A stretch of DNA of 64,000 nucleotides, from contig DATCTW010000045.1 of NCBI GenBank assembly GCA_036567745.1, positions 74,471-138,470 of the forward strand. Direction: 5' to 3'. Positions 1 to 17,460 of this stretch are shown here, in pieces. The stretch's first letter is position 1. Every line of letters starts with the position of its first letter. This DNA comes from Ignavibacteria bacterium (GTDB lineage: Bacteria; Bacteroidota; Ignavibacteria; DATCTW01). The position numbers and the translations under genes were made by a program. The notes beneath the pieces are model-generated. The model searched no databases and was not told the DNA's origin. It saw only the letters and a list, made by a program, of their open reading frames with translations.

Positions 1-201
1 ATGTCTCTCTTTGAATAGCTTTTTGAAGTGGTTTTAATCCCTTTCTTTGCGAAAACAAAGTCATAATTTATCTCTCCATTACTGAGGCAATTTTATACAA
101 CAGCTCGCAAGTTGTTGAAGACGGACCAAAGGTGGATTTTGGAAGAGGAGCGATAGGGAACAACTCCCAGCAACTTGCTGTTATCGAAAGTTGTGCCAAA
201 A

Positions 202-993
202 TCATATTACATCAAACAATGTTCTTTGTTTTTCTGATTTTATCAAATTATTATTTATTTCTTTTGTTTTTCCTTCTAATCTTTGTAGTATAGTTGTATA
301 GTATTCTTTTGAGATTTCAATAGTAATATAATTTCTCTTTAATTTTTTTGCTACATATGCCGTAGTTCCAGTCCCACCAAATGGATCTAATATAATATCC
401 TTTTCATTAGAACTTGCTTTAATTACTAATTCTAATAAATCCTCAGGCATCTGACAAGGATGCTCACCTATTCGCTCTTTAAAAGTTCCACAAACTCTTG
501 AAAATTGCCATACATCATCCGGTACCTTTCCTAATGGATTAGCTCTTTTATCGTTATAAATTAATTGTCTAGCTGATGGAATTCTTATATCATTATCATT
601 AAAAATAAAATTTTCTTTATCTTTAACAAAATAAAGTATATGAGTATGAGATCTATTAAATTTTTTTCTTTGATTTTGTCCAAAAGTATAATACCAAATA
701 ATCCAGTTCCTAAAATAAAATCCTTTCTTTTTGAGAATTATATTTATTTCAGCAGCAAATTCATCTCCTATAGCAATATAAATTGATCCATTATTTTTTA
801 AAATTCTGTAACATTCACTAATCCATCTATCAGACCATTTATAATATTCATCATAAGGCATATTGTCATTATGCAAATCATATTTTATTCCTATGTTAAA
901 AGGTGGATCAGCGAATATTAAATCAACAGAACCTTTTGGGATATTATTCATAATTTCTATACAATCACCTAAATATACTTTATTTATTTCCAA
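202..993 (-). CDS. Type II DNA methyltransferase, beta-class, likely N6-adenine (N4-cytosine not excluded)
   Basis: Motif IV ADPPF lies near the N-terminus and an AdoMet motif I-like DPFGGTGTT near the C-terminus; this is the permuted beta-class order. Length is 263 aa. The gene overlaps the upstream nuclease ORF by 14 nt on the same strand. Confidence 0.85.
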   Translation of the reverse strand: MEINKVYLGDCIEIMNNIPKGSVDLIFADPPFNIGIKYDLHNDNMPYDEYYKWSDRWISECYRILKNNGSIYIAIGDEFAAEINIILKKKGFYFRNWIIWYYTFGQNQRKKFNRSHTHILYFVKDKENFIFNDNDIRIPSARQLIYNDKRANPLGKVPDDVWQFSRVCGTFKERIGEHPCQMPEDLLELVIKASSNEKDIILDPFGGTGTTAYVAKKLKRNYITIEISKEYYTTILQRLEGKTKEINNNLIKSEKQRTLFDVI

Positions 994-1864
994 TATTTTC
1001 TTCTCCTCCTATATTAAATAATTCACACGGATTAATTTTAAATTGTAACTTGGTTGGATCTGGGGTTCCTCCTTTTCTTTGGAGGGTAATTCTGCCAATA
1101 TACAAACTACCTCGTGGTGAAATTTTTATTTCACCACTACCAAAAAAATTAATAGCAGTATTAATATCTTTAAGAATCCATGTTGTCGTATTTTCTTTTT
1201 TGTTAAACCGAGTTATTAAAATCCAATTAGCTGATAACCCTCCTCTTCCTTTTAGAATATCATTTACAATCAATAATCGATTATTTTCAAAAAAATTAAT
1301 AATTTTTTCTTGTATATTTTTAGGCATTTCATTAAAAAATATTCTTCTCTTGTCTTTTAACTTTATTTTTCTAATTTTGTTATTAAATAATTCTGGTTTA
1401 TTTTCTCCAGTAAAAAGTTTTAACCAAAAAGCAATTTCATCACAAAAATTCCACATTTTTTTATATTCATCAACAGATCTTTTATCAATTTGATTATAAT
1501 TAGCATCAGAATTTGCTTTTTTCAATGAAATATTTTCAATTTTTAAAATATTCCCAATCTTAATTCTAATTTTTATTTGAGCATCTGCTTTTTTGAATTT
1601 GATTAACTCTTCAAAATCATCTTCTTTTAATTCATATTCTGCTAATTTTTTTATATTAATTGTAGTTGGAATTTGAACAGCATCAACTGAAGTAATTTTA
1701 TTAACATTGTAACCCATAATTTCAAGCCATAATTTAGCTTCTTCATCTTTTAACCAATTATTAAATTTTTTGCAGATTTCAATTTCGTTTGCAAATCCAC
1801 CTTTAGCAGTAATAGATCCTATTTCTCTTCTATTCATTTTTAACCTATTTTGATTTTGGTACAA
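980..1864 (-). CDS. Putative Type II restriction endonuclease partnered with the downstream methyltransferase
   Basis: The ORF sits directly upstream of the MTase on the same strand with a 14-nt overlap, as expected for an R-M operon. I recognise no family motif. The called start at 1864 is a TTG; an ATG at 1837 (MNRREIGS...) is an alternative start. Confidence 0.5.
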   Translation of the reverse strand: MYQNQNRLKMNRREIGSITAKGGFANEIEICKKFNNWLKDEEAKLWLEIMGYNVNKITSVDAVQIPTTINIKKLAEYELKEDDFEELIKFKKADAQIKIRIKIGNILKIENISLKKANSDANYNQIDKRSVDEYKKMWNFCDEIAFWLKLFTGENKPELFNNKIRKIKLKDKRRIFFNEMPKNIQEKIINFFENNRLLIVNDILKGRGGLSANWILITRFNKKENTTTWILKDINTAINFFGSGEIKISPRGSLYIGRITLQRKGGTPDPTKLQFKINPCELFNIGGEENIGNK

Positions 1865-1962
1865 TTCCCACAGAACTCCTTCATAGACGACAGTGTCGCA
1901 TTTCTTCCATATATGTATGGATAAAGGGCGATATCATCTATCCAACTTTTTAATTTAATCAT
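1840..1962 (-). CDS. Small upstream ORF (40 aa, MIKLKSWIDDIALYPYIYGRNATLSSMKEFCGNCTKIKIG), copy 1
   Basis: ATG at 1962 (minus) is preceded by AGGAG 6 nt upstream. The stop TAA (1840-1842) lies 2 nt before the ATG at 1837 of the nuclease gene. A paralogous copy sits at 3923-4015. Not in the ORF track because it is under 60 aa. Confidence 0.3.
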   Translation of the reverse strand: MIKLKSWIDDIALYPYIYGRNATLSSMKEFCGNCTKIKIG

Positions 1963-1985
1963 GTTTAATCTCCTTGTAAGATTTT
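1866..1985 (-). repeat. Duplicated leader segment A (RBS plus N-terminus of the small ORF), copy 1; about 80% identical to 3920-4037
   Basis: Direct alignment of aactccttcatagacgacagtgtcgcatttc...catgtttaatctccttgtaag against 3920-4037. Confidence 0.8.
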
Positions 1986-2123
1986 TTCTAAGTTGTAATA
2001 GATAAAAGATTTAAATCTATTATTGCTGTATTTTTTTAAAAGGAGTTCTTTTCTTAAATCTTCAAAGTTATAAACAGATAAATTTACCACTTAACTATAT
2101 TTTACACTTTTATTTATATTATA

Positions 2124-2188
2124 ATTTTACAAAAAAAAATCTGGAAAAGCAATATTTTTATGAATAGTATTTTCGATGAAGTGATTAT
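2124..2188. repeat. 65-bp block B (attttacaaaaaaaaatctggaaaagcaatatttttatgaatagtattttcgatgaagtgattat), copy 1
   Basis: Base-for-base identical to 4253-4317. It has the same orientation and the same relative position upstream (minus-strand sense) of segment A. Confidence 0.85.
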
Positions 2189-2225
2189 TAAAATGGATCG
2201 ATAGCTAATATTCGGTAACTTGCAG

Positions 2226-3266
2226 TTAGACGTTGGCCATCTCTTTTTTTTCTATTATTAAATTAATTATTTCTTTTAAAATTTCTAAAAAAACTTCAAT
2301 TTCTTTTTCACTGTAATCTTTGTTTATTAACCATTTTAGATTATCACCTGCATTAGTAAATAATCCGGTTTTTTCTAATTTATTTCTATAAATATCAACA
2401 ATTTTTTCTGAATCTTCAACTTTTTTTATTATATTTTCAAAACCAGTATAAATACTTTGTTTAAATACACAATTAGGAGGATAACCAAATAATAAAGCAA
2501 TTTTTTCATTATTGAAAATAGTATTTAATGAAAATCCTTTTGAACCCCAAATAAAATGTAATTTTTTAGATTTTGCAAATTCAAATAATTTTGAAAAAAC
2601 TTTCTGTCCATTTTTATCGAGGGATTTGATAAACTCATTTTCATTAACTTTTGGTAGTGAGGCAGATTTAATTTCTTGTTTTTTATATTCTTCATCACCA
2701 ATTACATAATCTAATGTAATTATTTTTTCGCCTGATTTTGTTTGAAAATATTTAAATTCAAGGCAATTTATATTAATTCCATTTTTTCTTAAAAAAGTTG
2801 CGGTTTGTTTTATTTCTTTTGTAATATTTTGAGCAACAATTAATAAAATTAATTTTTTATTGAATGATACATTTTCATTATTTTGAAAAAATTGTTGATG
2901 ATAATCTTGGAGATCAACTTCATCCCCAAAGTAATTTTTAAATATATCGTTTAGTTGGCTGTAATCTAAATTTTCAATAAATGACGCATATTCTAATATT
3001 TGAGCAACAGTATCTCTCGGAGTTCTATCTCTTTTCAATTCAATAATAACAGTATTTCCGTTTTTATCAACCCCTAATAAATCAATAAATGAATTTAAGT
3101 TGGTAGTAACTTGTCTGCCAATAATTAAAACATTACTTTTTTCAAAAAAATATTCAGGATTTTTTTCTAATAGTATTTCTAAATCTTGCTCAATATTATC
3201 TTTTTTAAATAATTCTTCTTTATATTCTGATAATTTTCCATCTTTATTGATTGTAAATAATTTCAT
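2226..3266 (-). CDS. NucS/DUF91-like PD-(D/E)xK nuclease-domain protein with an uncharacterized C-terminal domain
   Basis: Residues ~45-100 (VLIIGRQV...IDLLGVDKNGNTVIIELKRDR...VAQILEYASFI) match the RecB-like nuclease core of DUF91/NucS: E/D...D...ELK...QxxxY. The remaining ~230 aa are unrecognised. The gene lies between two R-M systems. Confidence 0.55.
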   Translation of the reverse strand: MKLFTINKDGKLSEYKEELFKKDNIEQDLEILLEKNPEYFFEKSNVLIIGRQVTTNLNSFIDLLGVDKNGNTVIIELKRDRTPRDTVAQILEYASFIENLDYSQLNDIFKNYFGDEVDLQDYHQQFFQNNENVSFNKKLILLIVAQNITKEIKQTATFLRKNGININCLEFKYFQTKSGEKIITLDYVIGDEEYKKQEIKSASLPKVNENEFIKSLDKNGQKVFSKLFEFAKSKKLHFIWGSKGFSLNTIFNNEKIALLFGYPPNCVFKQSIYTGFENIIKKVEDSEKIVDIYRNKLEKTGLFTNAGDNLKWLINKDYSEKEIEVFLEILKEIINLIIEKKEMANV

Positions 3267-3455
3267 TTATATCAACTCCAAAAAGTGGTGGTATGTATTT
3301 AACTTTTGGGGGCTTTGCATTTGGGAGAGTTTCAAAGCACAAAACATTCAAACAAGCAGAGACTTTGATAGAAGCACAAAGCTTTATTTAATCACTGAAC
3401 CACCACTTATAAGTAAGTTGTGTTGTAAGCCGTTTTTATTCGTCCATTAAATGCT

Positions 3456-3780
3456 CTAAGTCGTTTTTTTTTCGTTTCCAATTCCTTTTGGATTTGGCCC
3501 AAATACATTTATTCCAATTTCACTATCAGCGAAAAGCATCCATAAAAAGTAAAATGGAATAATTTGATACCAACCATTATTACCTATGTCATGGCATCTT
3601 TTTGCACCTTGTGATAGCAAAAACCAAATGGCTGGAATTGATAGTAAGTACATAATGTCTTCTTCTAAATCAGCATACAGGATAAATAGATAAGCTATAA
3701 AATTGTAAGCAAAATAATATTACTTAGCCAGAATTCAGTTCTTGTGATACGTCCTTCAAATGAAAATGGTTTTTTAAACA
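3456..3780 (-). pseudogene. DUF805-family small membrane protein gene disrupted by a frameshift
   Basis: The N-terminal piece MFKKPFSFEGRITRTEFWLSNIILLTIL ends in a stop. The rest continues in another frame: ...AYLFILYADLEEDIMYLLSIPAIWFLLSQGAKRCHDIGNNGWYQIIPF...GPNPKG, which is the DUF805 RRxHDxGxSGWW...GPN signature. The frame switch is near 3700-3715. Confidence 0.5.
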
Positions 3781-3922
3781 TAGCTTTTTGATCCTAATTG
3801 TTAAACATTTAGTCTTTTATGTAATTACTTTTTGTAAAGTCTGCATGTATAAACCTCAATTTTATCAAGTGTTAATTTGTCTCTGTGTTTGTCTAGTTCG
3901 CATAAGCTGTCTTTCAAAAAGG

Positions 3923-4015
3923 CTATAACTCCTTCATAGATGACAGTATCGCTTTTTGTCCACATATGTATGGATTAAGGGCGATGTTATCTATCCAACT
4001 CATAAGCTTAATCAT
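3923..4015 (-). CDS. Small upstream ORF copy 2 (30 aa, MIKLMSWIDNIALNPYICGQKAILSSMKEL)
   Basis: Paralog of 1840-1962 with an AGGAG RBS. A premature stop makes it shorter than copy 1. It lies upstream of the DUF805 pseudogene. Confidence 0.25.
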   Translation of the reverse strand: MIKLMSWIDNIALNPYICGQKAILSSMKEL

Positions 4016-4252
4016 GTTTAATCTCCTTGTAAGGTTTGGTCTAAAGGGTCTTTTATCCTTACGATGTTTCTTGATTTCATAAACAAATATTTTTTTAAGC
4101 AATGTGTATTAAAATATAACAAGGGTTTTTGGATATAAATAATAATACTCTCTATATATTATTTATACCTTTCAACATTTTTTTTTCTTTAAGATATAAT
4201 GAAGAGTTGTTTACTGCTTTCCTTTTTTCAATTTTATTTTTTTTATGTTATT

Positions 4253-4317
4253 ATTTTACAAAAAAAAATCTGGAAAAGCAATATTTTTATGAATAGTATT
4301 TTCGATGAAGTGATTAT
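4253..4317. repeat. 65-bp block B, copy 2
   Basis: Identical to 2124-2188. Confidence 0.85.
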
Positions 4318-4473
4318 GAAAAATGTAGCTCGAAGAGTTAATATATAGTATAATTTCGATAAAGAGATCACCAAAAAAGTGAAGAGATAAAATGCGAAAA
4401 AGTATTTTATTGTTGGTATAGATTTATTTTCTATTGTTCAATTTCTTATTAAAGGCAGGACTTTAATTTTTAT

Positions 4474-7113
4474 TTATCCAAAGCTCTCTTCAATAATCTT
4501 TTTTTCTTCTTCTGTTATACCATAAATTTGATAGACAAGCTCATCAATTTCTGCATCGGTTTTTTTTATTTCTTCTTCAATTTTTGCTCTTTCATCTGTC
4601 TTCTTGTCTCCGATTTCGTTAAGGCGTTTGTTGAGAGAAAGCATTTTATCAACAAAATGGATTATTTTATCTTGTTCAGCAATAGACAATATTTTAATAG
4701 GAAATTTTTTTGCATTAGCTATTAATATTTTTTGAAAAAGATTTTTTGTAGGGTCTAAATATTTCTCTTTGTGATAGTAAGTTATTAATTTAGAGTTTAA
4801 TATAGCGAGAATATATTTTATTTTAACTTTAGTTTCATCTTTTGACAAAATATTAAATCCTATTTGCGAATTATATAGTTCCTCATTTGTATAACCTGCG
4901 TATATTCTTGGTGGTTTTCCGCTGATTATTTGCCTCACAACAATACGAGGTTTTGTAAAGAATCTCTTTTCTCTCGGAGCGCCTAACCAATTACCATAAC
5001 TAATATATTCTTTTTTATCCCAGTAAATACCATATCTAATAATATTTTCTCCAGAAAGTAGAGGTTTAAAGGTTTCATTCTTTTTTGTTTGAGAATGAAA
5101 AACCCTATTTTTTATTTGTTGTTCAGAATGTCCTTTATATTTATCATATGGGGTTAGACCAAGTGAAAAATCACATATTTCTATAAGATTTGTATTTTTC
5201 TCTTCTATTTTCGCGAGTATCTTTTTTACAATTGTATTTATTGTAATGTTAAAGTTAAAGTTTTCAGCTTCCCATACATTTTGATTGTAATATGTAATTT
5301 TTGGACAATTATCTTTTTTAATCCTGTTAATTGATATTTCTCTAGGATAAAGATAGACTTCACATTCTTCTGATTTCTTTTTCTTAGTTTTTTTATAAAT
5401 CAAAATAACTGTCTCAATTTTAACTCCCTCAAAAATATTATCTGGTAATCTTACAATCTTTTTAAGATTAGTATTAAATAATAACAATTTTCTTATTTTG
5501 GTATAAGACTCGTTATACAGTATTGAATTAGGTATAATAAAACCAAAGTAGCCCCCATCCTTTAATAAAGCTAAAGATTTTTCAACAAAAGTAGAATACA
5601 AATTCATTCTATTTTCTACAGTATTATAATTTTCAAAAAGGAATTTTACTATTTTAGGATCAAGTTGTTTTATATCAACATACGGTGGATTCCCAATTAC
5701 AACATCAAACCCACCTTCTTGCATAACTTTTTTAAATTCTTCTTCCCATTTAAAAGCTTTATCTCCTGCTATTGAGGGGTCATCAATTAATGAGTTCCCG
5801 CATTTTATGTTTTCCTGAAGTAATGGAAGGCGTTGCCCTTTTTCTGCAATCTTTAACAAAAGGTTAAGCTGTGCTATCTCTACCGCCTGTTTATCTAAAT
5901 CCACACCGAAAATGTTATTTTTGAGTATTTTTACTTTTGATGTGAATGGCAGACCTGTTTTAAAATCTATTTGTGTCTGTGAATAGTTTTTATCATGCTT
6001 CGCATAATATTCATTCAAAACATCGAAAGCTTTTATCAAGAATGAGCCAGAGCCACAAGCAGGATCTAAAACCCTTATTTTTTCAGGATTAACTTTTTTT
6101 TCTTTAAGCAGTTCCCCCAAAGTATTCCTTACGATATAATCTACAATATAAGTGGGAGTATAATAAATTCCTTGCTCTTTTCTGTGTGCGTGGTTTTCTG
6201 TAAGCTTTGCTCTTTTCTCACTTTTCTTTAAGATATGGCCAAGATACTGCTCGTAAATGTTACCTAAAATATCTGCTTCAATGGCTGAAAAATCATAAGA
6301 AACAGATTTGTCTTTTGTAAAATAAAGTCCTTCAATAATTTCGTGCAAAACTTCGTTGTCTATATCCAAATTGTCGCATAAATGATTTGCAAAAATTTTG
6401 CTGTTATAATTTTTGTCAAAATAGGCAAAAACCTCTCTCAAACTTTTTATTAACTGCCCTCTGCCTTTGCTTTCCCATTCCCTAAAGCTGGAAATCAAGG
6501 TTTTTGCTTCAAGCTCCCTATCTTCGCAGTTTCTGATAAAAATTAATCTGTCTAAAATTCTTTGAACAGCTTCATCTAAATCTTCTTCTGTGAGGTTTTT
6601 GTTTAATTTAGTTATATTCTTTAAAAGCAATTCCCTGAATCTTGTAAAATCTGCCAAAAGCTGTTTATCAACAGAAATCTTTTTTGTTTTCTTACCCCAT
6701 TTCTCTGCCTCTTTATCTATCAATCCCTGTTCAAAACTTTCTTTTGATAAAAGAGACAATTCGCTGAACCTATCTAAAAACTCCTGGCAGGGAATTGTTT
6801 TAAGATGATTCTGCAATGGATTAGAAGTTTTCCATTCAGCATTAAAGATTTTTACGCTTTCAAAGTTAGTAAGAATAGCCCAAGTGCAACCTTTATGCCA
6901 AGCATAATTTATTGCCTGTTCAATAAATTTAGGATTGTCCAAATCTTCTTTTAGAGATTTTGCTTCCAAAAAGAATTTTGGAATACCGTTAATTCTGAAA
7001 CCATAATCAACTCTTTTTTTGGAAACTTTTTCTTCAGCAGTAACCTCGTTTGAATCTTCAGTATTCCACCCTAACGCACGAAATAGAGGTAGAATAAAAT
7101 CCTTTTTAGTCAT
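4474..7113 (-). CDS. Type IIG/IIL single-chain restriction-modification enzyme (N-terminal PD-ExK nuclease, gamma-class N6-adenine MTase, C-terminal target-recognition region)
   Basis: N-terminus VDYGFRINGIPKFFLEAKSL is a D...EAK nuclease motif. Motif I is VLDPACGSGSFL and motif IV is VVIGNPPYV. The 879-aa size is comparable to MmeI-type enzymes. No separate S subunit, R subunit or BREX partner genes are nearby. Confidence 0.75.
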   Translation of the reverse strand: MTKKDFILPLFRALGWNTEDSNEVTAEEKVSKKRVDYGFRINGIPKFFLEAKSLKEDLDNPKFIEQAINYAWHKGCTWAILTNFESVKIFNAEWKTSNPLQNHLKTIPCQEFLDRFSELSLLSKESFEQGLIDKEAEKWGKKTKKISVDKQLLADFTRFRELLLKNITKLNKNLTEEDLDEAVQRILDRLIFIRNCEDRELEAKTLISSFREWESKGRGQLIKSLREVFAYFDKNYNSKIFANHLCDNLDIDNEVLHEIIEGLYFTKDKSVSYDFSAIEADILGNIYEQYLGHILKKSEKRAKLTENHAHRKEQGIYYTPTYIVDYIVRNTLGELLKEKKVNPEKIRVLDPACGSGSFLIKAFDVLNEYYAKHDKNYSQTQIDFKTGLPFTSKVKILKNNIFGVDLDKQAVEIAQLNLLLKIAEKGQRLPLLQENIKCGNSLIDDPSIAGDKAFKWEEEFKKVMQEGGFDVVIGNPPYVDIKQLDPKIVKFLFENYNTVENRMNLYSTFVEKSLALLKDGGYFGFIIPNSILYNESYTKIRKLLLFNTNLKKIVRLPDNIFEGVKIETVILIYKKTKKKKSEECEVYLYPREISINRIKKDNCPKITYYNQNVWEAENFNFNITINTIVKKILAKIEEKNTNLIEICDFSLGLTPYDKYKGHSEQQIKNRVFHSQTKKNETFKPLLSGENIIRYGIYWDKKEYISYGNWLGAPREKRFFTKPRIVVRQIISGKPPRIYAGYTNEELYNSQIGFNILSKDETKVKIKYILAILNSKLITYYHKEKYLDPTKNLFQKILIANAKKFPIKILSIAEQDKIIHFVDKMLSLNKRLNEIGDKKTDERAKIEEEIKKTDAEIDELVYQIYGITEEEKKIIEESFG

Positions 7114-7527
7114 CTCCTCATTGTATTTACTGACTCTTTTTTCTTCTACAACTTTGTCATATTTCTCTAAAAGATTTCTGATTTCTTGTTTTATAGTTTC
7201 CTCCCAGAATAAATTGTTTATATAAATAATATTTTATAACCCAAAAATCAAGGAAAAGAATATCCCCTTTAATTTTTTATCAGTTACAACTTTTAAAGAG
7301 TAGCTGATTCACTATAAAAAAATATTAATAAATATATTTTTTTAACTAAACTTTCTATATATAATAAAGTTAAATAAAACTAATAGATTGGAATATTTTG
7401 GGGCATTTACAAGGTTTCAATATTAGAAATATAGATTAAAAATAACATTGATCAAAAAAAATATTTAAATATTATTAGTATAAAACTTATTAAATAACAG
7501 ATTATATACTTTATAGGGAGATTTTTT

Positions 7528-9159
7528 ATGAATTTTAAAAATTTATCACTATCAGCAAAAGTTTTGGCTGGTTTTATAATTATTGCCTTGATAGCATCAA
7601 TTAATACTTACATTAATTTATTATCAGCTAAAGCCAGTAATAACATAACACAGCAAATCATCAAAATCAGAACACCTAAAATTATTGATTTACTAAATAT
7701 AAAATTCAATATTTCAGAAATAAAATCTTATAGAAGAACATTTATTTCACGAGAAATGTCTATAAATGATAGAGAGAAACAATATGGTAAAATGGAGAAT
7801 AATTTTATATCTTTAAGAAAATCTTATGATAGCTATGATAAAACAGAAAAAAGGGAATTTGCTTATAAAAACTGGGAATTATTTAAAACTAATTTTAAAA
7901 TATGGGAACAACTCCATAATAAATTCATTTCAAAATCAAAGGAACTTGATAATGCATTAAAATTAAACCATAGTAATGTTGATAATTTATACAAAGAATT
8001 AGCGCAAATAACATTAGTTGAATTGGCAGAATATACTTCTAAAATGGAGAGTATTATTGATGAATTAGTAAATTATAATTTTGAAATGAATAAACAGGAA
8101 AGCGATTTAGCAGATAAAAAAATAAGTAATACTAGTACTATAACCATTATTTTAGCTATTATATTATTTATTATTGCAATTTCGTTAGGTTTATATATTT
8201 CAAGAAATGTTATAAAAAAGCCAATATCTGATTTAATAAATGCAATAAAAAAAGTGATACAGGGTGATTTTACAACACAAATAGAGATTAAAAATAAAGA
8301 TGAAATCGGAAGAATATCTGAAATGATAAATGATTTGATAAAATCGAGAAAAGATGAAATTACAGATTTACTTAAAAGAAGTGAAACAATTATAAATGCA
8401 AGCAAAAGACTGTTGAATGTTAGTATAAATGTACAGGAAAATTCTGAAAAATTAAATGAACAGACTTCCATTACAGCGGCATCAAGCGAACAGGTTTCGA
8501 CAAATATTTCTACAGTATCAAGTGCGGCAGAGGAGATGGCTTCAAGTGTAAAAGAAATTGCAAAAAATACAAATACTGCCTCATCAATATCAAATGATGC
8601 TGCAAGTAAAGCAACAGTTGCTGGTGAAGTAATAGATAGACTTGGAAAAAGTTCATCAGAAATTGGTAATATTGTTAAAGCAATAAACACAATAGCAGAA
8701 CAAACAAACCTTTTAGCTCTTAATGCAACAATTGAAGCAGCAAGAGCCGGAGAGAGTGGTAAAGGTTTTGCAGTTGTAGCTAACGAAGTAAAAGAGCTTG
8801 CCAAAGAAGCTGGTAAAGCTACAGAAGATATTTCCAATAGAATTAAAATGATACAGGAAGAGAGCAATAATGCAATAAATGTTATAAAAGAAATTATTGA
8901 AAGCATCACACAAATTAATGACATATCAAATACTATTGCTTCGGCTGTTGAGGAGCAAACTGTAACAACTTCAGAAATTACCCGAAACTTATCTGAAGCC
9001 ACTAAAGGAGCTTCTACAGTTGCGGAAAGTAATGCTGAAATTTCTAAAACAGTAGAAGATTACAGAAATATGTCAACACAAATAAAAGATGATGCGCATA
9101 ACCTTGAAGAGATAGCTACTTCACTAAAGCAACATCTAGTTAGTAGTTATAAAATTTAA
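7528..9159 (+). CDS. Methyl-accepting chemotaxis protein
   Basis: Contains an N-terminal TM segment, a second TM segment plus HAMP region around residue 200, and an MCP signalling domain ([33 protein letters not shown]). Confidence 0.9.
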
Positions 9160-9205: not shown

Positions 9206-9425
9206 TAAAAATATTAAACTTTTATATTAATAATATCATACCATTTTGTAGTATAAAAAATAAGATTTTTTTTATCTCACTTTTAACTTTCTGCTACAAG
9301 TCTGAGAAGCAAGCTTTAAAGTTTCATAAATTTAGATTTTTTTACTGACTAGTTTTAATAATTTTTACAAAAAAAGTAAAATTAATCAGAAATTTAATAT
9401 GTAGGTTTAAGAATGGGATATTTAG

Positions 9426-9499
9426 TGGGCCCTGTAGGACTCGAACCTACGACCCACAGATTATGAGTCTGTTGCTCTAACCAACTGAGCTAAGGGCCC
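9426..9499 (-). tRNA. tRNA-Met (anticodon CAT; elongator Met or Ile2/lysidine type not distinguishable)
   Basis: The reverse complement GGGCCCTTAGCTCAGTTGGTTAGAGCAACAGACTCATAATCTGTGGGTCGTAGGTTCGAGTCCTACAGGGCCCA folds as a cloverleaf with a GGTTCGAGTCC T-arm and a CAT anticodon. Confidence 0.85.
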
Positions 9500-9558: not shown

Positions 9559-11064
9559 TTATTCTTTTATAATTTCCTTTATTGATTTTATACCTCTTCT
9601 GTTGAAATAAGGTATAAGGTGTCTTGAACTTGGGTTTTTAGAAGGTTTATAACCAAAATATTTTTCCTCCTCTTTCTGGGTCAACCACCCATTAAAGTGT
9701 TTAACTGCTTCCATACCAACTAATTGCCCAATTGAAAAATTAAATTCTTTATCAATTTCGTCAAGTGTTTTTACTTCTCTTTTACCATAGTAAATATCTT
9801 GCCATATTTTTTTTGCAATTTTTTTCATTATTTCTCGTAATTCGGTAATATTATAATCACTTATTGTAGTGAAAGGATGTTCAAGGTCAGGAAAATGTTT
9901 TATGCTAAGAATTTCTGCATTATCTAAATGAGCCAAAACAAATGCTTTTTCAATCATTTTTTCTAATTGTCTAACGTTTCCTTCCCAATCAAAAGTTTCC
10001 ATTTTTTTTAATACTTCATTATCGATATCAAGTATATTTTGATTTAAATAATGGTATTTAAAGAGAAAATATTTTACCAGAATTTTGATATCTTCTTTAC
10101 GTTCGTTGAGTGAGGGTAATTCGATTTTACAACCATCTAATCTATAAAACAGATCTTTTCTGAATTTGCCTTCTTCTACATATTTATAAATATCTACATT
10201 AGTTGCTGCTATTATTCTTACATCGTCAATATTAATTGTAGTATCTGATCCAATTGGTTGAATTTCTTTTTCCTGTAAAATTCTTAGTAGCTTAACTTGA
10301 AGGTATAATGGAAGTTCTCCAATCTCATCAAGAAATAGGACACCGCCTTTAGCTGATTTGAAAGCGCCATCTCTATCTTTTCTGGCATCTGTAAATGCTC
10401 CTTTTACATAACCGAATAATTCTGATTCAATTAATGTAGGAGGTATAGCAGCAATATTTAATCCAATAAACTTATTCCTTTTTCTTATTTGGCTGTACTT
10501 ATGTATTGATCTGGCAACTAATTCTTTTCCAGTACCGGTTTCGCCAAAAATAAAGACAATTGGAGGATTGTTTTCATGATCGACCTTTGCATAAAGTCTG
10601 ATTAATTTTTTAATATTTTTAATTTTTGCTGATTCACCTTTAAGAAAATTAGGATTTTCATCATTATCTTTTGCATATCTTAGAATGTGTTCTGCTTCTT
10701 CATAATCAATATTATCTTTAATAAAATAATCATAAATGTTTTTACCTGATAACCCTGATATTTCTAAAAATGTTTTTGGGGAATCATCAACAGTGAAAAT
10801 AATTACTTTTATATCTTTAAATTCTGAATTTTTTAATTGTAATAAAACATCCTTGCCTTGTAAAGATTGATTTTTAAAATTCAAATCAAGAATAATTATC
10901 TTAATATCTTTTTCTTTTTTTAGAATAGGTAAAACTTGATCGGAATATTTAGTCCAAATAAAATGGAATTCATCAGAGAAATATTTTTTAAATCTCTTTT
11001 CCCAATTGTTTTCAATGTATTCATCATCAGCACAAAGAACTTTTATCTTATTGTTTGAGTTCAT
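9559..11064 (-). CDS. Sigma-54-dependent transcriptional activator (receiver-like N-terminus plus AAA+ sigma-54 interaction domain)
   Basis: Walker A GETGTGKE, GAFTDA (the GAFTGA variant), Walker B VLFLDEIGEL and the arginine finger region are present. The N-terminal ~120 aa is receiver-like. No canonical Fis-type HTH is evident at the C-terminus. Confidence 0.8.
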   Translation of the reverse strand: MNSNNKIKVLCADDEYIENNWEKRFKKYFSDEFHFIWTKYSDQVLPILKKEKDIKIIILDLNFKNQSLQGKDVLLQLKNSEFKDIKVIIFTVDDSPKTFLEISGLSGKNIYDYFIKDNIDYEEAEHILRYAKDNDENPNFLKGESAKIKNIKKLIRLYAKVDHENNPPIVFIFGETGTGKELVARSIHKYSQIRKRNKFIGLNIAAIPPTLIESELFGYVKGAFTDARKDRDGAFKSAKGGVLFLDEIGELPLYLQVKLLRILQEKEIQPIGSDTTINIDDVRIIAATNVDIYKYVEEGKFRKDLFYRLDGCKIELPSLNERKEDIKILVKYFLFKYHYLNQNILDIDNEVLKKMETFDWEGNVRQLEKMIEKAFVLAHLDNAEILSIKHFPDLEHPFTTISDYNITELREIMKKIAKKIWQDIYYGKREVKTLDEIDKEFNFSIGQLVGMEAVKHFNGWLTQKEEEKYFGYKPSKNPSSRHLIPYFNRRGIKSIKEIIKE

Positions 11065-11896
11065 AGTTCAGAATTCCTATAATATTCTCAAGTTTGGTTT
11101 TAATATTATTTACAGTATCGGTTAAAGTATTTTTGTCATTAATTAGTTTATCATCAATTTTCTTATTATTTTTAAAATGTTCTATTAATTCATAAAGATT
11201 ATCAAGAAGTATTTTTAAATCATTTAAGTTTTGTCTTGTTTCAGCATCTATTATGGTTTTATTATTTTCTATAATGGTGTTTAGGGAATTAATTTTATCT
11301 AAAACATTATTTTTAAGAGTTGCTGGATCAAAAAATAGTTCTAATTTATTATTTTTAGGATTGTTGAGGTAATTATTGATACTTGCATTTAAATCAGGTA
11401 TTAATTGAGAAATTTTATTTAAAAGGTCATGTTTAAATGATCTTAATGATTTAATCAATTCAGAAAATTTTTCTTTTTTAAAGTTATCAGTAATTTTTAG
11501 TTTGGTTTTATCTAAAAAAATTTTCTTAATTTTTTCTGTATCAAATGGGTAATGTAGAAAATAATTTTTATCATATTTAAGCCATTTGTTTTTAAGATAG
11601 AATTTAATGTTTTCTTCATTTTCATATGAAAAGAAAACAATCTGATAATTTTCTCCAAATTTATGAAAGTTTGTTTTGATAAATTCTAAACCACCTCTTT
11701 CATACTCGTATTTAAAGGTATCATTTATAAAGCTTGTATTGATGAATAATATTACATCTTCTATGATATCAAATAGTTTATTTTGATTTTCGCTTTCGAT
11801 TAATTCAATTGAGAGTTCAGGAAAATGTTTTAAGATTTGTTGATAAAAAAAATTAGAATTATCTAAAATAATAGTTTTTCTTTGATCCATTAGCAA
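11048..11896 (-). CDS. Hypothetical protein (operon member)
   Basis: 282-aa ORF whose stop overlaps the downstream activator gene start by 17 nt. No recognised motif. Confidence 0.4.
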   Translation of the reverse strand: MLMDQRKTIILDNSNFFYQQILKHFPELSIELIESENQNKLFDIIEDVILFINTSFINDTFKYEYERGGLEFIKTNFHKFGENYQIVFFSYENEENIKFYLKNKWLKYDKNYFLHYPFDTEKIKKIFLDKTKLKITDNFKKEKFSELIKSLRSFKHDLLNKISQLIPDLNASINNYLNNPKNNKLELFFDPATLKNNVLDKINSLNTIIENNKTIIDAETRQNLNDLKILLDNLYELIEHFKNNKKIDDKLINDKNTLTDTVNNIKTKLENIIGILNYELKQ

Positions 11897-11898
11897 TA

Positions 11899-12558
11899 TT
11901 ATATTTTATTGATTAGTTGTTCGTATTTTAACGTAGATTTATTTATAAATTTTAGCATACTATCTATTTCAATTGAATTATCATTCTTAATAAAACTATC
12001 GAATGGTAAGATTTTATTATTACAGTTTAAAAGTTTTATAAATTTGCAGAATTCTTCATAAATATTAATAATTTCTGATAAAGACGAATGCTCATAATTA
12101 AAGATTATTTTTTTTCTATACTCAAATAATTTATCAAGGTTTAAGAACTTTTCACCAGGATATAAGTACTTAAAGTCTATATTTGCGAAATTGTTTTTTA
12201 ATAAAAAGATTAAAAAATCAGTAATTTGATTTTCTAATAAAGAATCATTTATTTCGCAGATATTCGACTCTATTAAATTAAATCCTTTTATACCTCCGCT
12301 ATAAAGAACAAGAGGAACAGAATATTTTTTAGCCTCAATGGTAAAAATTGGTTCAGAATAATCCCCAATGTTATCACTGCTATGAATAAAAGCTAGATTG
12401 TAATCATTTATTGGAAAAAACAAACCTTCATTGTTTTTGCGATTTTGTGATGCATGAATTGTAAGTTCGCTAATTGGGATTTCTTCTCTAATCGATTTTA
12501 CAATTCTTTGTATTCTTTTACCTGACTCTCCGCCATCAATTATTATTATTTTAAACAT
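11899..12558 (-). CDS. Hypothetical protein (operon member)
   Basis: 219-aa ORF with a 2-nt gap to the downstream gene and an 8-nt overlap with the upstream gene. Confidence 0.4.
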   Translation of the reverse strand: MFKIIIIDGGESGKRIQRIVKSIREEIPISELTIHASQNRKNNEGLFFPINDYNLAFIHSSDNIGDYSEPIFTIEAKKYSVPLVLYSGGIKGFNLIESNICEINDSLLENQITDFLIFLLKNNFANIDFKYLYPGEKFLNLDKLFEYRKKIIFNYEHSSLSEIINIYEEFCKFIKLLNCNNKILPFDSFIKNDNSIEIDSMLKFINKSTLKYEQLINKI

Positions 12559-13747
12559 TTAACAGTTCACCTGAAGAAGATTTTGGTTTAGGTAATAAAA
12601 ATGTTAAAGTAATTTTTAAATCTTTTAGATGATTACTATTGGTTGTTATATCATTATAAATATTATAAGAAATACCATTACCCTCATATATCACTGAACA
12701 ATATTTATCAAAAGCTTTTTTAATTGAAGATAAACCTGGAGTTAAATGCATAAAAGCTTCTTGAGGGTTAAAAGAGTTGCCATTAGCCTCTATAGTTAGA
12801 ATAACTTTAGAGTTTATTGATTCAACAGTAGTTTTTACATAATTATTTTGATCGAAGGTTTGAAAATTATGTCTTGCAATATTTTCGTAAATTGTTTTTA
12901 AACCAATTAATATTCTTTCTTTTTCGCAATAAATTCTGGGGATAGTTGTATTAATGTTATTAGTAACTTGAACGTTTTTATTAAATAATGGTTCCTGACA
13001 TGATTTTAAGATATCCTCTGTAAATTCTAATCTAAAATATGATTTAAAGGAAATCATTTCTTCTTGAGATGGGTATTCATATCGAATTTTATTTAGATAA
13101 TTCTCGATTAGTAATTTTGAATGCTCAGTGATATATTGTTTTTCTATAGAATTATTAAAAAAGTTAAAAGTCTGATCAAGATATTTTAACATTTTTTGAT
13201 GATCATAGTTAGAGTGGGTTAGCTTATAAAAACCGATATTTTCATCATTACCATAATTATAGGAATCAAAAAGTTTGAAGAAGAAAACAACAAGATTTAT
13301 TCTGTTTTTTAATACCTCATTAATGCAATTTTCCAAAGTTTCTTTAAAAAGTTCATTCATGTAGGCTTTTTTTAATCGATGATTAATCAAACCTTTCTTA
13401 ATAAATTCTTCTTCAATTTTAAATCTACTTGGGTCTTCTTCTTTTTGAGCAGAGTACCAAATAATTTGTGTTTGAGAATTAATTTCTTTTGCTTTTTTGA
13501 TTATTTCAAAACCAGCATTTTTATCTTCATTAAATTGGTTTTCAGAAAAGTCAATATCACAAACAACGATATCGAAATAATCATGTTTTCTTGAGGATTC
13601 AATTAATTTTGTAATAGCATCCTGAGCGGATTCACTTTCGTGAAAATCAGTATCATAGTTTGATGAAAAATAAAGGTTAAAATAATCTATAAAATCTTCT
13701 CTACAAGAAAGAAGATCTTCAGCAATTAAAATTTTAAGCTTTTCCAT
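12551..13747 (-). CDS. Response-regulator receiver domain fused to a GHKL/HATPase-like domain
   Basis: N-terminus KILIAEDLL...DIVVCDIDF...IIKKAK is receiver-like. The C-terminus VILTIEANGNSFNP...GLSSIKK resembles HATPase_c G1/G2 boxes, with no recognisable HisKA H-box. Confidence 0.55.
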   Translation of the reverse strand: MEKLKILIAEDLLSCREDFIDYFNLYFSSNYDTDFHESESAQDAITKLIESSRKHDYFDIVVCDIDFSENQFNEDKNAGFEIIKKAKEINSQTQIIWYSAQKEEDPSRFKIEEEFIKKGLINHRLKKAYMNELFKETLENCINEVLKNRINLVVFFFKLFDSYNYGNDENIGFYKLTHSNYDHQKMLKYLDQTFNFFNNSIEKQYITEHSKLLIENYLNKIRYEYPSQEEMISFKSYFRLEFTEDILKSCQEPLFNKNVQVTNNINTTIPRIYCEKERILIGLKTIYENIARHNFQTFDQNNYVKTTVESINSKVILTIEANGNSFNPQEAFMHLTPGLSSIKKAFDKYCSVIYEGNGISYNIYNDITTNSNHLKDLKITLTFLLPKPKSSSGELLNV

Positions 13748-16700: not shown

Positions 16701-17460
16701 ATGTGATTTTTTTTGGATATGAATTAGTAAAGAAAATAAAAGCAAATAACTCCAATTCAAGTGAATTGCAATAAATGGAACTACTTTTATTTATTCTTAG
16801 ACATTCGATGAACTTTGCTTCAACATACTTTGTACTTAATTTTTTCTCAAAAATAAATTGTTCTAATTCTTGATCTACTTTGATATTATTATTTTTATTT
16901 TTCGCCTCTTTCCCAATTTGAATTTCTGAAAAATCGAACTTTTGTAATTCTCTAATTATTACTGATAAATTTTCTTCTGAAATATTGAATAATGAGGGAG
17001 ATAAAATATGATACTTATTATTAAAGTTTGATATACAATTTTTGAATTCTTGAGTGTTTATTACTGTTGTAGTTTGAATTCTAATAAACCGCCTATCATC
17101 GAGTAGTTTTATAAGCAAAATATCAAAAAATATTTCTTCTAATTCGTTTGGGTTAATGATTGTACTCAAGAATTTTTTAAGATGAACTAGACGTTCAACT
17201 ACTCTAATTCTTTTTCTAGCAATTTGAATATCATAATTATATAATTCAAATTTCAGTATATCAATTTCTCGATTTGACACTATCGCATTTCTCCAGAAAG
17301 CTCTAACACTAAAAATAAACAAAATAGTAAAAAAAGTCAAATAAAATAAAATAATAATTTTTAGAATTGTAATGGTTTTGAATTTTATCTTTGCAAAAAG
17401 AAAAAATATTTTATATAATTTAAATAATAAATAGGAATAACTATGAGTAAAAGAGTTCAA
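13726..17460 (-). CDS. Very large (1244 aa) putative sensor histidine kinase with an uncharacterized ~950-aa N-terminal region
   Basis: TM segment near residues 25-55. The C-terminal ~250 aa carry an H-box-like LIDQLAHSLNTNIGASKNS and HATPase-like N/G boxes (LIIKDLLKNSF, IENN, QHLGIKVILR). The rest is unrecognised. Confidence 0.55.
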   Translation of the reverse strand: MNSFTHSYSYLLFKLYKIFFLFAKIKFKTITILKIIILFYLTFFTILFIFSVRAFWRNAIVSNREIDILKFELYNYDIQIARKRIRVVERLVHLKKFLSTIINPNELEEIFFDILLIKLLDDRRFIRIQTTTVINTQEFKNCISNFNNKYHILSPSLFNISEENLSVIIRELQKFDFSEIQIGKEAKNKNNNIKVDQELEQFIFEKKLSTKYVEAKFIECLRINKSSSIYCNSLELELFAFIFFTNSYPKKITFDTKNLTIVKGLCLGLFYNLLHKLEAILNIIEINQPLNLNEHDILILKNELPLINKYFETNENTKILITNIKNHFLSNTILNSLINNFGVIFNIDYHTPNHNGEIIRKNGLIAQRFFEHKTYFFNNLKLKFLESKYSKNLQIDTISLTINCLVKNEDFDSKYYGGLKKEDSQTKLIDPIDFNSIDKNLIVDKNILEEIDLLFDLAKFDEFNKIIESRKYENSFIGIDPQHNNFYVGKIELNLPKKQEILNAGVLNPLFYRKEFFNKKLEITKQKHFSSNDIINSVFLGKDYKGYSINSYDQFIQKSDYIPVITEEVIRFGNFPDIIKAKVIEKKPLNSFSQNLIHENDILIAFKIADEKNKIAIAWCIAPSIFNNSLPDKHLIVIRLNTIRITPYDYVEYLNYLNSNNLLFQITELVETCYLNDKFEENCFHFIKSFFENLPFPEKIKDEYELTSWLKQKVCDIYFDLINLESKNLNNLFNSTLNEFYKNRFPLVHIWQKEYIDFLWEYNNKPEKILLISDFRAENHKEILLEYLSTIDIVINNISYKNTNLKNVIKSLVNDKIEIIKNNFISEDIINKICVIFTENAELLKYQYDNIKNLNLFKSIYLVYSKENTSNEIFDNTYNEILLFLKERGVEIKERVKLSDINSYFNNPFQLEKKFLSSLFIYSELSINTANRYNFFSRFSNLLKEYADKIISYQKYHGQSAFFFLESNHFAKKAMEIKIEENKDLAKKAEWETLIDQLAHSLNTNIGASKNSISLINSHLKNKNDIEKYIPDISRFEKFMQDRQIFKYIDRSMNYLNEVSDLIDLFLSNIKDISKNIGTINLSDIIHEQVRLIKDGIDTLRFSNLTHKNNVKNLKPIFELDDTITIETSKRISALIIKDLLKNSFVNTNQDSPYVKIKTMMIDNNYCLLQIENNKVISEEWEKLVNENIEDQSIKMSKSQHLGIKVILRCNERLNWNMKVYPDRINNFTTTNVFIPIKWKSLKF

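Follow-up and report, generated by a model that had tools for sequence, protein, structure and literature searches.

Remnants of a tyrosine recombinase in the repeated leaders of a tRNA-Met-adjacent defence island

How do several restriction and nuclease genes come to stand side by side behind copies of the same short leader? The question is raised by a 64-kb stretch of DNA (the window) from a Bacteroidota/Ignavibacteria MAG, in which a first-pass annotation had described three nuclease or restriction-modification (RM) modules and a decayed DUF805 gene on one strand. Genes were called by Pfam and PADLOC profile matches, and all four genes and the pseudogene were recovered in this way (Table 1).

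Results

Layout of the island

The island adjoins tRNA-Met, and the variable region begins 19 nt beyond the 3' end of the tRNA. The IIG coding sequence reaches ~7200, upstream of the ATG at 7113 and without a canonical start codon; with this extension the PADLOC profile matches from position 7, at 429 vs 412 bits. Directly joined to it is a GGGAG Shine-Dalgarno (SD) in the segment P0, which also holds a B-like promoter motif (7231-7263) and whose counterpart in the related strain L009 stands upstream of another first module. The DUF805 pseudogene carries one frameshift only, and Logan contig L008 has the identical sequence. The NucS_C-like nuclease is a PADLOC candidate single-gene defence system, and the REase, with a possible alternative TTG start at 1864, belongs to a family of ~278-aa proteins of 65-72% identity spread widely across phyla. 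The last module is the AbiJ_NTD4/PDC-S32 gene, which runs off position 1, so that the island extends beyond the window edge: window 1-3295 matches L009 16679-19979 at 97.8%, and the gene at L009 19916-20755 is hit by PF18863 and, at 1e-93, by PDC-S32.

Table 1. Positions in the window of the island's genes, repeated blocks and recombinase remnants.
Feature	Position	Strand	Evidence
AbiJ_NTD4/PADLOC PDC-S32 gene, 5' end	1..64	-	ATG at 64-62; match to L009
N6/N4 (N6_N4) DNA MTase of HinP1I-type RM pair	202-993	-	PF01555 3e-61 (Pfam), MTase_II 2e-74 (PADLOC)
R.HinP1I-family REase, 285 aa from ATG at 1837	980-1837	-	PF11463 5e-56
Small ORF 1, 40 codons, MIKLKSWIDDIALYPYIYG..., in segment A1	1840-1962	-	Homologs by HMMER
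Recombinase ghost 1 ("spacer" ORF1)	1965..2090	-	tblastn with L032 recombinase
Block B1	2124-2189, extended 2108-2193	-	65/66 identical to B2
NucS_C-like PD-(D/E)xK nuclease	2226-3266	-	PF01939 7e-7; PADLOC PDC-S11 4e-45
DUF805 pseudogene	3456-3782	-	PF05656 on 65-aa C-terminal ORF; frame analysis
Small ORF 2, 30 codons, in segment A2	3923-4015	-	
Recombinase ghost 2	4027..4131	-	tblastn
Block B2	4253-4318	-	65/66 identical to B1
B2 and ~140-nt upstream flank common to island variant 3	4253..4459	-	
Type IIG RM enzyme	4474-7113	-	Pfam Eco57I/N6_Mtase/TaqI_C/HSDR_N
P0, conserved island-entry segment	7201..7298	-	87.8% identical to L009 11801-11898
tRNA-Met	9425..9499	-	

The repeated leader holds recombinase remnants

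The duplicated unit that had been claimed, made up of block B, a spacer, an RBS and a small ORF, is real: it measures ~320-400 bp and is present exactly twice in the window. The extended version of block B covers 86 nt at 95% identity between copies, and segments A1 (1874-1991) and A2 (3927-4044) are 86% identical over 118 nt; two copies of each were found where 0 are expected by chance, and the spacers of ~130 and ~208 nt are hardly alignable. Both small ORFs are preceded by AAGGAGAT-N5-ATG. A generic repeat scattered through the genome had been named as one of two findings that would undo this picture; in exact-core scans neither block B nor segment A was found outside this locus of this lineage, and the wider family of the unit was detected at the peptide level only.

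At that level, 1.84 billion proteins were searched by HMMER with the 40-aa ORF, and three true homologs (P0255-P0257) emerged, which share the first 30 residues and diverge thereafter. In two intact relatives (L031 and L032), one of them with a cluster mate in a candidate division WOR-3 MAG, a tyrosine recombinase ends 3 nt upstream of the homolog. That of L032 is a 382-aa protein with Phage_int_SAM_4 and Phage_integrase domains, scoring 232.5 bits (cut-off 220) with NF040815 ("site-specific tyrosine recombinase/integron integrase"). When the whole window was searched by tblastn with the recombinase, the top two matches were the two spacers. In ghost 1, positions 1992-2069 match residues 106-131 at 58% identity (E 3e-8 vs the leaders alone, 4.7e-4 vs the whole window), and the tail LEKILQGD, whose stop codon is 3 nt away from the ATG of the small ORF, corresponds to the recombinase C-terminus; the counterpart of this ghost in L009 is frameshifted. 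Ghost 2 matches the last 35-37 codons, i.e., box II and the ...RIKDPLDQTLQGD tail with its stop (38% identity over 37 aa, residues 345-379), with an E value of 1.6e-5 vs the leaders and 0.058, a weak value, window-wide; L032 has CCTTTAGACCAAA at the same position. The two ghosts keep the correct order, each running to the stop codon ahead of the small ORF. What remains in the spacers is an Xer/integron-integrase-type tyrosine recombinase gene that has lost different parts in each copy, and the small ORF is the conserved region found 3 nt after the recombinase stop in the two intact relatives. The unit is not supported as primarily a leader, and the recombinase that the first-pass annotation advised seeking outside the window has left its remnants inside the leader itself.

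Similarity ends at a fixed nucleotide

At seven junctions in five contexts and three lineages, similarity ended at the same point, directly after ...TATGAAKGAGTT, and six aligned sequences all lost similarity at one column. The junction follows ...TATGAAGGAGTT in both window copies, at 1874 in A1 and at 3927 in A2. Beyond it stand a HinP1I-type RM, the DUF805 pseudogene, a BslI-type RM and two unrelated sequences, with a distance from unit to cargo start of 2 to ~140 nt. L031 and L032 are identical at 452/460 positions up to ATGAATGAGTTA and then at 58/200, which equals random. The last ~24 nt before the junction (GCGACACTGTCGTCTATGAA) are conserved as DNA, ending 6 nt short of the fixed point, and belong to a set of TGTCGTCTAT inverted repeats with a 1-nt spacer, vs 6-8 bp in classical tyrosine-recombinase core sites. 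Two 21-bp palindromes lie in the intact site, which has a strong fold when single-stranded (z -4.5 to -4.9; 0/200 shuffles). The far ends of the cargo yielded neither a reciprocal half-site nor a second copy of the core. We infer that the fixed junction was the strand-exchange site of the recombinase.

Related strains carry different modules at the same locus

When island content and boundaries were compared across related genomes, as had been suggested, three different module sets were found at the tRNA-Met-adjacent locus. In variant 3 (L018/L029), which is of the same lineage, the unit precedes a BslI-type MTase. This variant matches window 4459-4238 at 95% (L018) and window 4664-4238 at 94.6% (L029), and it is hybrid in make-up, the crossover lying at the right edge of B. 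The A alleles form mosaics, an AlwI-type RM occupies the place of the IIG enzyme in a strain variant, and differences between IIG alleles are confined to the TRD region. In another phylum, different sequences again follow the homologous units.

Could homologous recombination alone have produced this variation? The locus would then be an ordinary hypervariable RM/defence locus with B and A as passive anchors, the ghost a leftover of some old, unrelated integrase, and the shared junction point the outcome of common descent from one truncated sequence. The hybrid variant and the mosaic A alleles are as this account would have them; RM allelic substitution and IIG TRD substitution, both seen here, are known classes (PMC2853133); and no active recombinase was found in the window or fetched flanks. 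However, homologous exchange keeps junctions and cannot create five right-hand partners at the same nucleotide; two of the five partners lie in a different phylum, adjoining an intact recombinase; and the 24 nt before the junction are kept as DNA, next to synonymous sites that are almost saturated. We regard this account as unlikely.

Peptide, DNA and block B are under constraint

Between A1 and L032, codons 1-21 have a pS of 0.73 and a pN of 0.20, and codons 22-29 a pS of 0.00. Relative to the L029 allele, codons 1-19 of small ORF 1 show 6 synonymous and 0 nonsynonymous changes (Fisher p 6e-6). This ~110-bp region is dual-coded, the first ~21 codons as peptide and the last ~24 nt as DNA. Purifying selection on the peptide suggests that the small ORF has its own function, one outside the explanation given by our model. 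Block B1 differs from the L029 allele at 1/63 positions vs 37/250 in the rest of the unit (p 0.002); it contains a TTTCCA-18-TATAAT promoter match (2147-2118), a consensus that may not be this host's, and B and P0 have in common a 32-nt motif with three occurrences in the window, all at module heads. Block B is probably a retained promoter for the downstream module, and it now also looks like a homologous crossover point.

These constraints invite a regulatory reading, in which a promoter and a translated uORF adjust the expression of toxic defence genes, for instance through a delay of the REase, and recur because they are useful. All alleles have a strong SD and an ATG, the selection acts on the peptide itself and is relaxed in small ORF 2, the copy ahead of the pseudogene (pN/pS 0.27-0.33), the stop of small ORF 1 lies 2 nt upstream of the REase ATG, and the copy-1 leader RNA folds with z -3.6, pairing AGAACUCCUU with AAGGAGUUCU. 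That RNA structure, however, is not kept in copy 2 or L018 (z -1.3 and -0.7), the distance to the cargo start varies over the range given above, the ORF in intact relatives is coupled to the recombinase and not to cargo, and distant HinP1I and BslI RM homologs are without any such leader. Regulation as the reason for the recurrence of the unit is in our view quite improbable.

Discussion

The reading that we consider reasonably probable from these comparisons is that recombination sites bound the modules of this defence island, that its recombinases are dead and that it was put together one module at a time at those sites. Each "leader" would be the relic of a recombinase module of the Xer/integron-integrase clade, its recombinase gene cut by different internal deletions to a ghost of 26-37 codons, the "spacer", followed by the ~110-bp region that in relatives sits 3 nt past the recombinase stop and whose first ~21 codons would encode a conserved, translationally coupled micropeptide. 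Successive site-specific joining would have built the island from IIG, DUF805 with PDC-S11, and HinP1I RM with the AbiJ-like gene. Since no recombination was observed and no intact recombinase was found in the window or fetched flanks, this step is placed in the past by historical inference. Any integrative element inserted at different places also gives a conserved end and then variable DNA, so that both a capture platform taking up cargo downstream of the recombinase and a tandem row of mini integrative elements that each have their own recombinase and site at the end would fit.

It seems very improbable that the unit is a MITE-like non-autonomous mobile element with a promoter, or an assembly artefact from a repeat among co-occurring strains. 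Unit boundaries are discrete on both sides, and those Logan contigs of SRR2059973 whose sequence is the same as the window's (L001, L008) break inside B, so that the tandem order rests on the window assembly. The unit is nevertheless without terminal inverted repeats or target duplications, its copies are confined to one locus, and left and right contexts change independently, not together. Against an artefact, each type of junction can be found in independent assemblies (L008, L009, L010, L018, L020, L021 and L029), and B stands on either side of the DUF805-NucS segment however the graph is resolved.

Least probable of all, and largely refuted, is a canonical integron or CALIN with attC-bounded promoterless cassettes captured by IntI: the relatives' recombinase matches TIGR02249 at 1e-64, the junctions read GTT and L009 has hairpins with GCATAAT...GTTATGC and GTCTAAT...GTTAGGC ends, but the score of 218.8 is below the cut-off of 265 with profile positions 180-235 (the IntI insert) unmatched, the recombinase is co-oriented with its cargo of multi-gene units, B does not fold (z +1), A is without R''/R' boxes, no attC-type R''/R' site bounding the cargo was found, and the homology break upstream of NucS lies ~10 nt beyond GTTA. 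The cassette-style assembly first proposed for this island therefore stands in part: a recurring discrete unit does bound modules, head different cargo and form junctions at the same nucleotide, and the strict "integron-like" version is not supported by the insert, score, attC, folding and orientation results just given. With integrons, including chromosomal integrons storing defence cassettes, the locus shares the recombinase clade, a fixed joining point beside the recombinase gene (G-TT) followed by unrelated cargo in different genomes, anti-phage cargo and a site that forms a hairpin when single-stranded. It differs in having its site on the 3' side of the gene, in overlap with a coupled ORF of 30 codons, in cargo units of one to three genes, and in a recombinase that is dead and twofold in the window.

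Tycheposon-type arrays are an example of tandem accretion of integrase-bearing genomic islets beside tRNA genes. Our island likewise starts close to a tRNA gene, with small tandem modules, decayed recombinase genes and strain-variable content. Unlike in such islets, the ghosts are not beside the tRNA and the joining site is the 3' side of the recombinase gene, not a tRNA fragment; no repeats of the tRNA-Met 3' end were found at the island.

Allelic substitution, Type IIG TRD substitution and insertion with long target duplication have been described as RM-linked rearrangement classes (Furuta, Abe and Kobayashi 2010, PMC2853133). Each of the three can be seen here, including a segment flanked by long direct repeats. 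These repeats are no fresh target duplication, however (B identical, spacers unalignable, A 86%); they are homologous recombinase relics with different deletion histories, and the segment between them is without an RM pair. In Bacteroidota genomes, tyrosine recombinase homologs are associated statistically with restriction enzymes within 10 kb, according to the S1 Fig text of PMC13552941; that study used Tsr25-type baits and gives no site or mechanism, whereas the recombinase here is a different protein, Xer/IntI-like, and the joining point is mapped.

In the order of events favoured by site-specific assembly, the recombinases would have died in place, with block B kept under selection. Today, B and A may serve mainly as homology patches for the exchange of modules between strains through ordinary homologous recombination.

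Organization of the island and its duplicated unit

The host is an uncultured bacterium of ~25% GC whose ribosomal proteins bear Bacteroidota or Ignavibacteria names in NCBI MAGs, and the island begins 19 nt beyond a tRNA-Met gene. The genes listed by the first-pass annotation are all present on the minus strand (window 1-7300), and its description of a duplicated block followed by a divergent spacer and a small ORF was likewise borne out. The two copies of block B are identical at 65 of 66 positions and those of segment A, which holds the RBS and the small ORF, are 86% identical; the spacers between them are of unequal length and almost unalignable. B and A each occur twice in the 64 kb window, both times within the island (0 expected by chance), and all alleles of the small ORF carry AAGGAGAT-N5-ATG. 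The tandem order of the modules rests on assembly through a 65-bp exact repeat.

Features of the island and its surroundings in the window
Feature	Position	Strand	Remark
AbiJ_NTD4/PDC-S32 gene	begins at 64	minus	runs off window
N6/N4 MTase	202-993	minus	
R.HinP1I-family REase	980-1837	minus	
Segment A, copy 1	1874-1991		
Block B, copy 1	2124-2189		
NucS_C-like nuclease	2226-3266	minus	matches PADLOC candidate system PDC-S11
DUF805 gene	3456-3782	minus	broken, one frameshift
Segment A, copy 2	3927-4044		
Block B, copy 2	4253-4318		
Type IIG enzyme	4474-7113	minus	
P0, island-entry segment	7201-7298		
Methyl-accepting chemotaxis gene	7528-9159	plus	between tRNA-Met and P0 (7299-9406)
tRNA-Met	9425-9499		
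Four co-oriented genes	9559-17460		282, 219, 398 and 1244 aa

Upstream of its ATG the Type IIG frame remains open for ~29 codons that still show homology to the family profile (window 7113-7236). This extension holds no ATG, GTG or TTG and joins P0 directly after the GGGAG Shine-Dalgarno sequence of P0, so either translation begins at a non-canonical codon (ATA or ATT) or the enzyme lacks part of its N-terminus. The four co-oriented genes adjoin a sigma-54 activator; no Pfam match is on record for them in related contigs, and the 282-aa gene has none here either.

The spacers are remnants of a tyrosine recombinase gene

The sole peptide search that worked was an index-free HMMER comparison of the 40-aa ORF with 1.84 billion proteins, which returned three true homologs (37, 44 and 94 aa) that have their first 30 residues in common and then diverge; one has a cluster mate from a MAG of candidate division WOR-3. 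In L031 and L032, two distant contigs with intact relatives of the unit, the small ORF begins 3 nt past the stop codon of a tyrosine recombinase gene. The L032 recombinase is complete (382 aa, with Phage_int_SAM_4 and Phage_integrase domains) and, at 232.5 bits, exceeds the cut-off of 220 set for the NCBIfam model 'site-specific tyrosine recombinase/integron integrase'. Its two best matches in the whole window are the two spacers. The spacer of copy 1 retains residues 106-131 (NFEDLRKELLLKKYSNNRFKSFIYYN, 58% identity) joined to the final few codons, and that of copy 2 retains the last 35-37 codons (ending in RIKDPLDQTLQGD and the stop), matching L032 residues 345-379, a match that is weak taken alone. 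Both ghosts, as we call these remnants, are in frame with the stop codon preceding the small ORF and keep the order of the intact gene. The unit is thus composed of a recombinase relic and the recombinase-adjacent region, and the matches to the L032 protein show that the 'divergent spacer' goes back to one kind of recombinase gene, shortened by different deletions in the two copies.

Judged from sequence, the spacers are pseudogene relics of an Xer/IntI-clade tyrosine recombinase, as their homology in gene order indicates, and segment A is the region that follows such a gene. The intact catalytic domain (RKHRH-Y) is gone, with 26-37 codons left that are interrupted by stops and frameshifts. 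The nearby recombinase that had been suggested earlier survives only in this form: no recombinase gene was called in any flank, and the ORFs of suitable size in the window included none. Searches of viral contigs with the recombinase and the A core gave nothing, or a single chance match, and homologs on Bacteroidota plasmids (39% identity to the recombinase) had no comparable architecture in the one context inspected.

A reading of spacer ORF1 as an N-terminal SAM-like fragment is right for copy 1; copy 2 keeps the C-terminal end instead. An alternative frame in copy 2 (window 4040-4102) resembles recombinase residues 182-197 (FVYEIKKHRKDKRP versus FIYEVKRPRSDRKLP, E 1.3), which is probably a coincidence, as it overlaps the better-placed C-terminal match. 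The A-run of ghost 1, A7 in the window, is A8 in four contigs of related strains, L009, L010, L020 and L021 (L009 17930-17950 corresponds to window 2030-2040), with the residual frame shifted; the T9 run within B is of constant length among alleles.

A nucleotide-precise boundary lies at the end of the small-ORF region

L031 and L032 are identical at 452 of 460 positions up to ATGAATGAGTTA and only 29% identical thereafter, this junction being located 90 nt 3' of the recombinase stop codon. In a six-way alignment similarity was lost at the same column in every sequence, after ...TATGAA(K)GAGTT. The A region ends at a nucleotide-precise variability boundary in seven junctions from five contexts and distant lineages, a small sample drawn from three lineages. 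The cargo genes adjoining L031 and L032 have no Pfam match, and no reciprocal site was identified at cargo ends.

Between the window and L032, synonymous sites of the small ORF are near saturation over codons 1-21 (pS 0.73, pN 0.20), whereas codons 22-29 show zero synonymous change. By this comparison, the first part of the small-ORF region is conserved as peptide and the last 24 nt (GCGACACTGTCGTCTATGAA) as DNA; the core constrained at the DNA level adjoins the variability boundary. Within the lineage, copy 1 of the window and the island variant V3 differ by 6 synonymous and 0 nonsynonymous changes in codons 1-19 (p 6e-6), and in codons 20-28 pN/pS is ~1 or above. Small-ORF alleles that have intact cargo give pN/pS values of 0-0.14 among themselves, comparison with L032 gives 0.27, and constraint is relaxed in the allele preceding the DUF805 pseudogene. 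In intact elements the A region contains a pair of 21-bp palindromes made up of the 10-mer TGTCGTCTAT and folds as single-stranded DNA (z ~ -4.7). The window retains part of the second palindrome, and the first is degraded (z -2.3).

Whole modules differ between strains at one locus

We recovered the same locus in related strains by look-up of the conserved sigma-54 activator adjoining the tRNA. The flank formed by activator and tRNA-Met is 99-100% identical between strains, but the island interiors differ. V1, the window, has the IIG-type interior. V2 (L009, L010, L020 and L021) runs from tRNA-Met through an AlwI-type RE with two MTases, a 332-aa gene, PDC-S11, B, A, a HinP1I RM and PDC-S32 to housekeeping genes, and V3 (L018 and L029) has a IIG gene that differs in its target-recognition region, followed by the same 140-nt flank, B, A and an intact BslI-type MTase. 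The comparison of related genomes proposed in the first-pass annotation reveals three module sets at one locus, which is polymorphic for whole modules, and from their contents the unit heads three different cargoes within one lineage. Conserved flanks around unrelated contents in same-lineage strains place it among hypervariable defence/RM loci (classes of PMC2853133). V3 follows copy 2 through B and then continues with a copy-1-type spacer, and A of V2 contains patches of the A2 allele; both indicate ongoing homologous exchange inside the blocks.

Among the RM-linked rearrangement classes of Furuta et al. (PMC2853133), allelic substitution and IIG TRD substitution are seen here. The third, insertion with long target duplication, is defined by flanking repeats that correspond to one copy in a genome with the empty site, and by an insert holding R and M genes. 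Single-copy arrangements do occur in L009 and L029, but with other neighbours; the spacers of the repeats differ, and the insert here is DUF805 plus PDC-S11, with no RM pair.

Several further differences were observed between strains. The IIG genes (window 4664-5680, L029 119-1285) are 95-97% identical at both ends and have no DNA similarity over ~1 kb spanning the TaqI_C-type specificity region, which looks like a target-recognition-domain swap between the window and V3. The BslI-type MTase is frameshift-split in L018 (159-1403) and intact (414 aa) in L029 (2021-3265), contigs that are 99.95% identical, and the split is either strain variation or an assembly error. In L009 the chemotaxis gene is absent and P0 comes ~160 nt after the tRNA. 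L009 also has a 42-nt direct repeat starting GCCTAACACC, with one copy after the AlwI module and another after the AbiJ-like gene, perfect inverted repeats of 13 bp (GTTATGTGCAATT / AATTGCACATAAC) around the 332-aa gene, which has no family match, and two ~100-nt hairpins (z ~ -2) with attC-like end motifs; all are absent from the window (L009 15436-15495, 16530-16680, 20788-20829 and 11900-12005).

Block B resembles the island-entry segment

Window copy 1 and V3 differ at 1 of 63 positions in B and at 37 of 250 in the rest of the unit (Fisher p 0.002). The right half of B resembles P0 (local alignment p ~0.005), a conserved segment ahead of the first island gene in V1 and V2, and the derived 32-nt motif occurs in the whole window only at P0, B2 and B1, where a Markov model expects 0.15. 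Copy 1 contains a TTTCCA-18-TATAAT match, and B is probably a retained promoter. Neither a structural role for B, in RNA or in single-stranded DNA, nor a terminator function found support. The folding of B does not exceed that of shuffled sequence (z +1.0 to +1.2), and a plus-strand ORF starting in B (MNSIFDEV...) is not conserved.

Occurrence of the unit elsewhere

Exact scans with the A core (23- to 26-mer) and B core (26- to 35-mer) found neither in viral contigs or in 185,579 species genomes. A degenerate B core gave three true matches in JGI metagenomes, all at this locus, and three chance matches; coverage of that scan was partial, since the pattern-bearing L009 and L029 contigs were not returned, and absence there is weaker evidence than it looks. 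Rfam matched the tRNA alone and nothing in the unit; the peptide of ORF1 fused to the small ORF matched nothing in Pfam, NCBIfam, PDB or a word-indexed search of 5.8 billion proteins; the 40-aa ORF is not on record by exact look-up; and plasmid and phage BLAST with leader or peptide gave low-complexity or chance matches only. Distant HinP1I and BslI RM loci have no such leader, so the arrival of the unit was separate from that of the RM genes.

Proposed history and alternatives

We infer that the variability boundary would be the crossover point of the recombinase, predicted to fall within GAAKGAGTT, and that the island would have grown through site-specific joining of modules. The recombinases would have decayed afterwards, with B surviving as a promoter, and present-day shuffling would proceed by homologous recombination. 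A broader proposal, which we advance tentatively and regard as doubtful, is a previously undescribed capture platform distinct from integrons. Its Xer/IntI-clade recombinase would lack the IntI insert and be co-oriented with the cargo, and directly 3' of the recombinase gene its site would overlap a translationally coupled ORF of 30 codons with a conserved peptide. Such a platform would gather anti-phage modules and would exist in at least two lineages at phylum level (Bacteroidota/Ignavibacteria-like and candidate division WOR-3), with its fossil state seen in the window. In one study, tyrosine recombinases are reported to be statistically associated with restriction genes in Bacteroidota (PMC13552941).

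Whereas such a platform would place cargo to the right of the recombinase, the arrangement may instead be one of tandem mini-elements, each ending with its own recombinase. Leader-peptide attenuation agrees with a short ORF that has a Shine-Dalgarno sequence and a constrained peptide, but conserved alternative RNA structures were not found (folding was significant for copy 1 alone, at z -3.6, against -1.3 for copy 2 and -0.7 for L018), and hand inspection of allele differences revealed no compensatory changes in the A hairpin pairs.

The integron-like assembly put forward in the first-pass annotation does not correspond to a canonical integron. An integron integrase has the IntI-specific additional domain and passes its family threshold; against TIGR02249 the L032 recombinase reaches 218.8, short of the cut-off of 265, and its match is split in two around uncovered profile positions 180-235 (the IntI-specific region), while the window has ghosts alone. 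In an integron every cassette carries an attC site at its 3' end, an imperfect hairpin (R'' RYYYAAC ... R' GTTRRRY); around the cargo of the window there is no R''/R' pair, and neither B nor the intergenic stretch 3290-3435 (z ~0) folds. Integrons have intI divergent from the array and attI 5' of intI, but the recombinase of L031 and L032 is co-oriented with the variable DNA. An attC reading of the GCCTAAC repeats in L009 was rejected, as they do not fold.

A tRNA-targeting island would repeat the tRNA 3' end at its distal boundary or between elements, but the last 16-25 nt of tRNA-Met, with 2-4 mismatches allowed, had no match in the island of the window or of L009. A MITE or IS origin is disfavoured by the lack of TIR or TSD at the unit ends on hand inspection and by the confinement to the island of the only two copies in the 64 kb.

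Implications

As this case shows, short 'unrecognisable' repeats in defence islands can be recombinase relics, and using the micro-ORF of such a relic as query leads to living relatives that DNA and word-indexed protein searches miss. One 90-nt stretch is under dual constraint, at the peptide level in the first two thirds and at the DNA level in the last third, which is unusual and open to direct testing; the joining site is mapped at single-nucleotide resolution, and L032 offers an intact recombinase for testing. The finding is of moderate interest, which would rise sharply if an L032-type recombinase acts at the mapped site. If the junction is a true recombinase crossover, it would represent a second route, besides integrons, for stringing defence genes together module by module.
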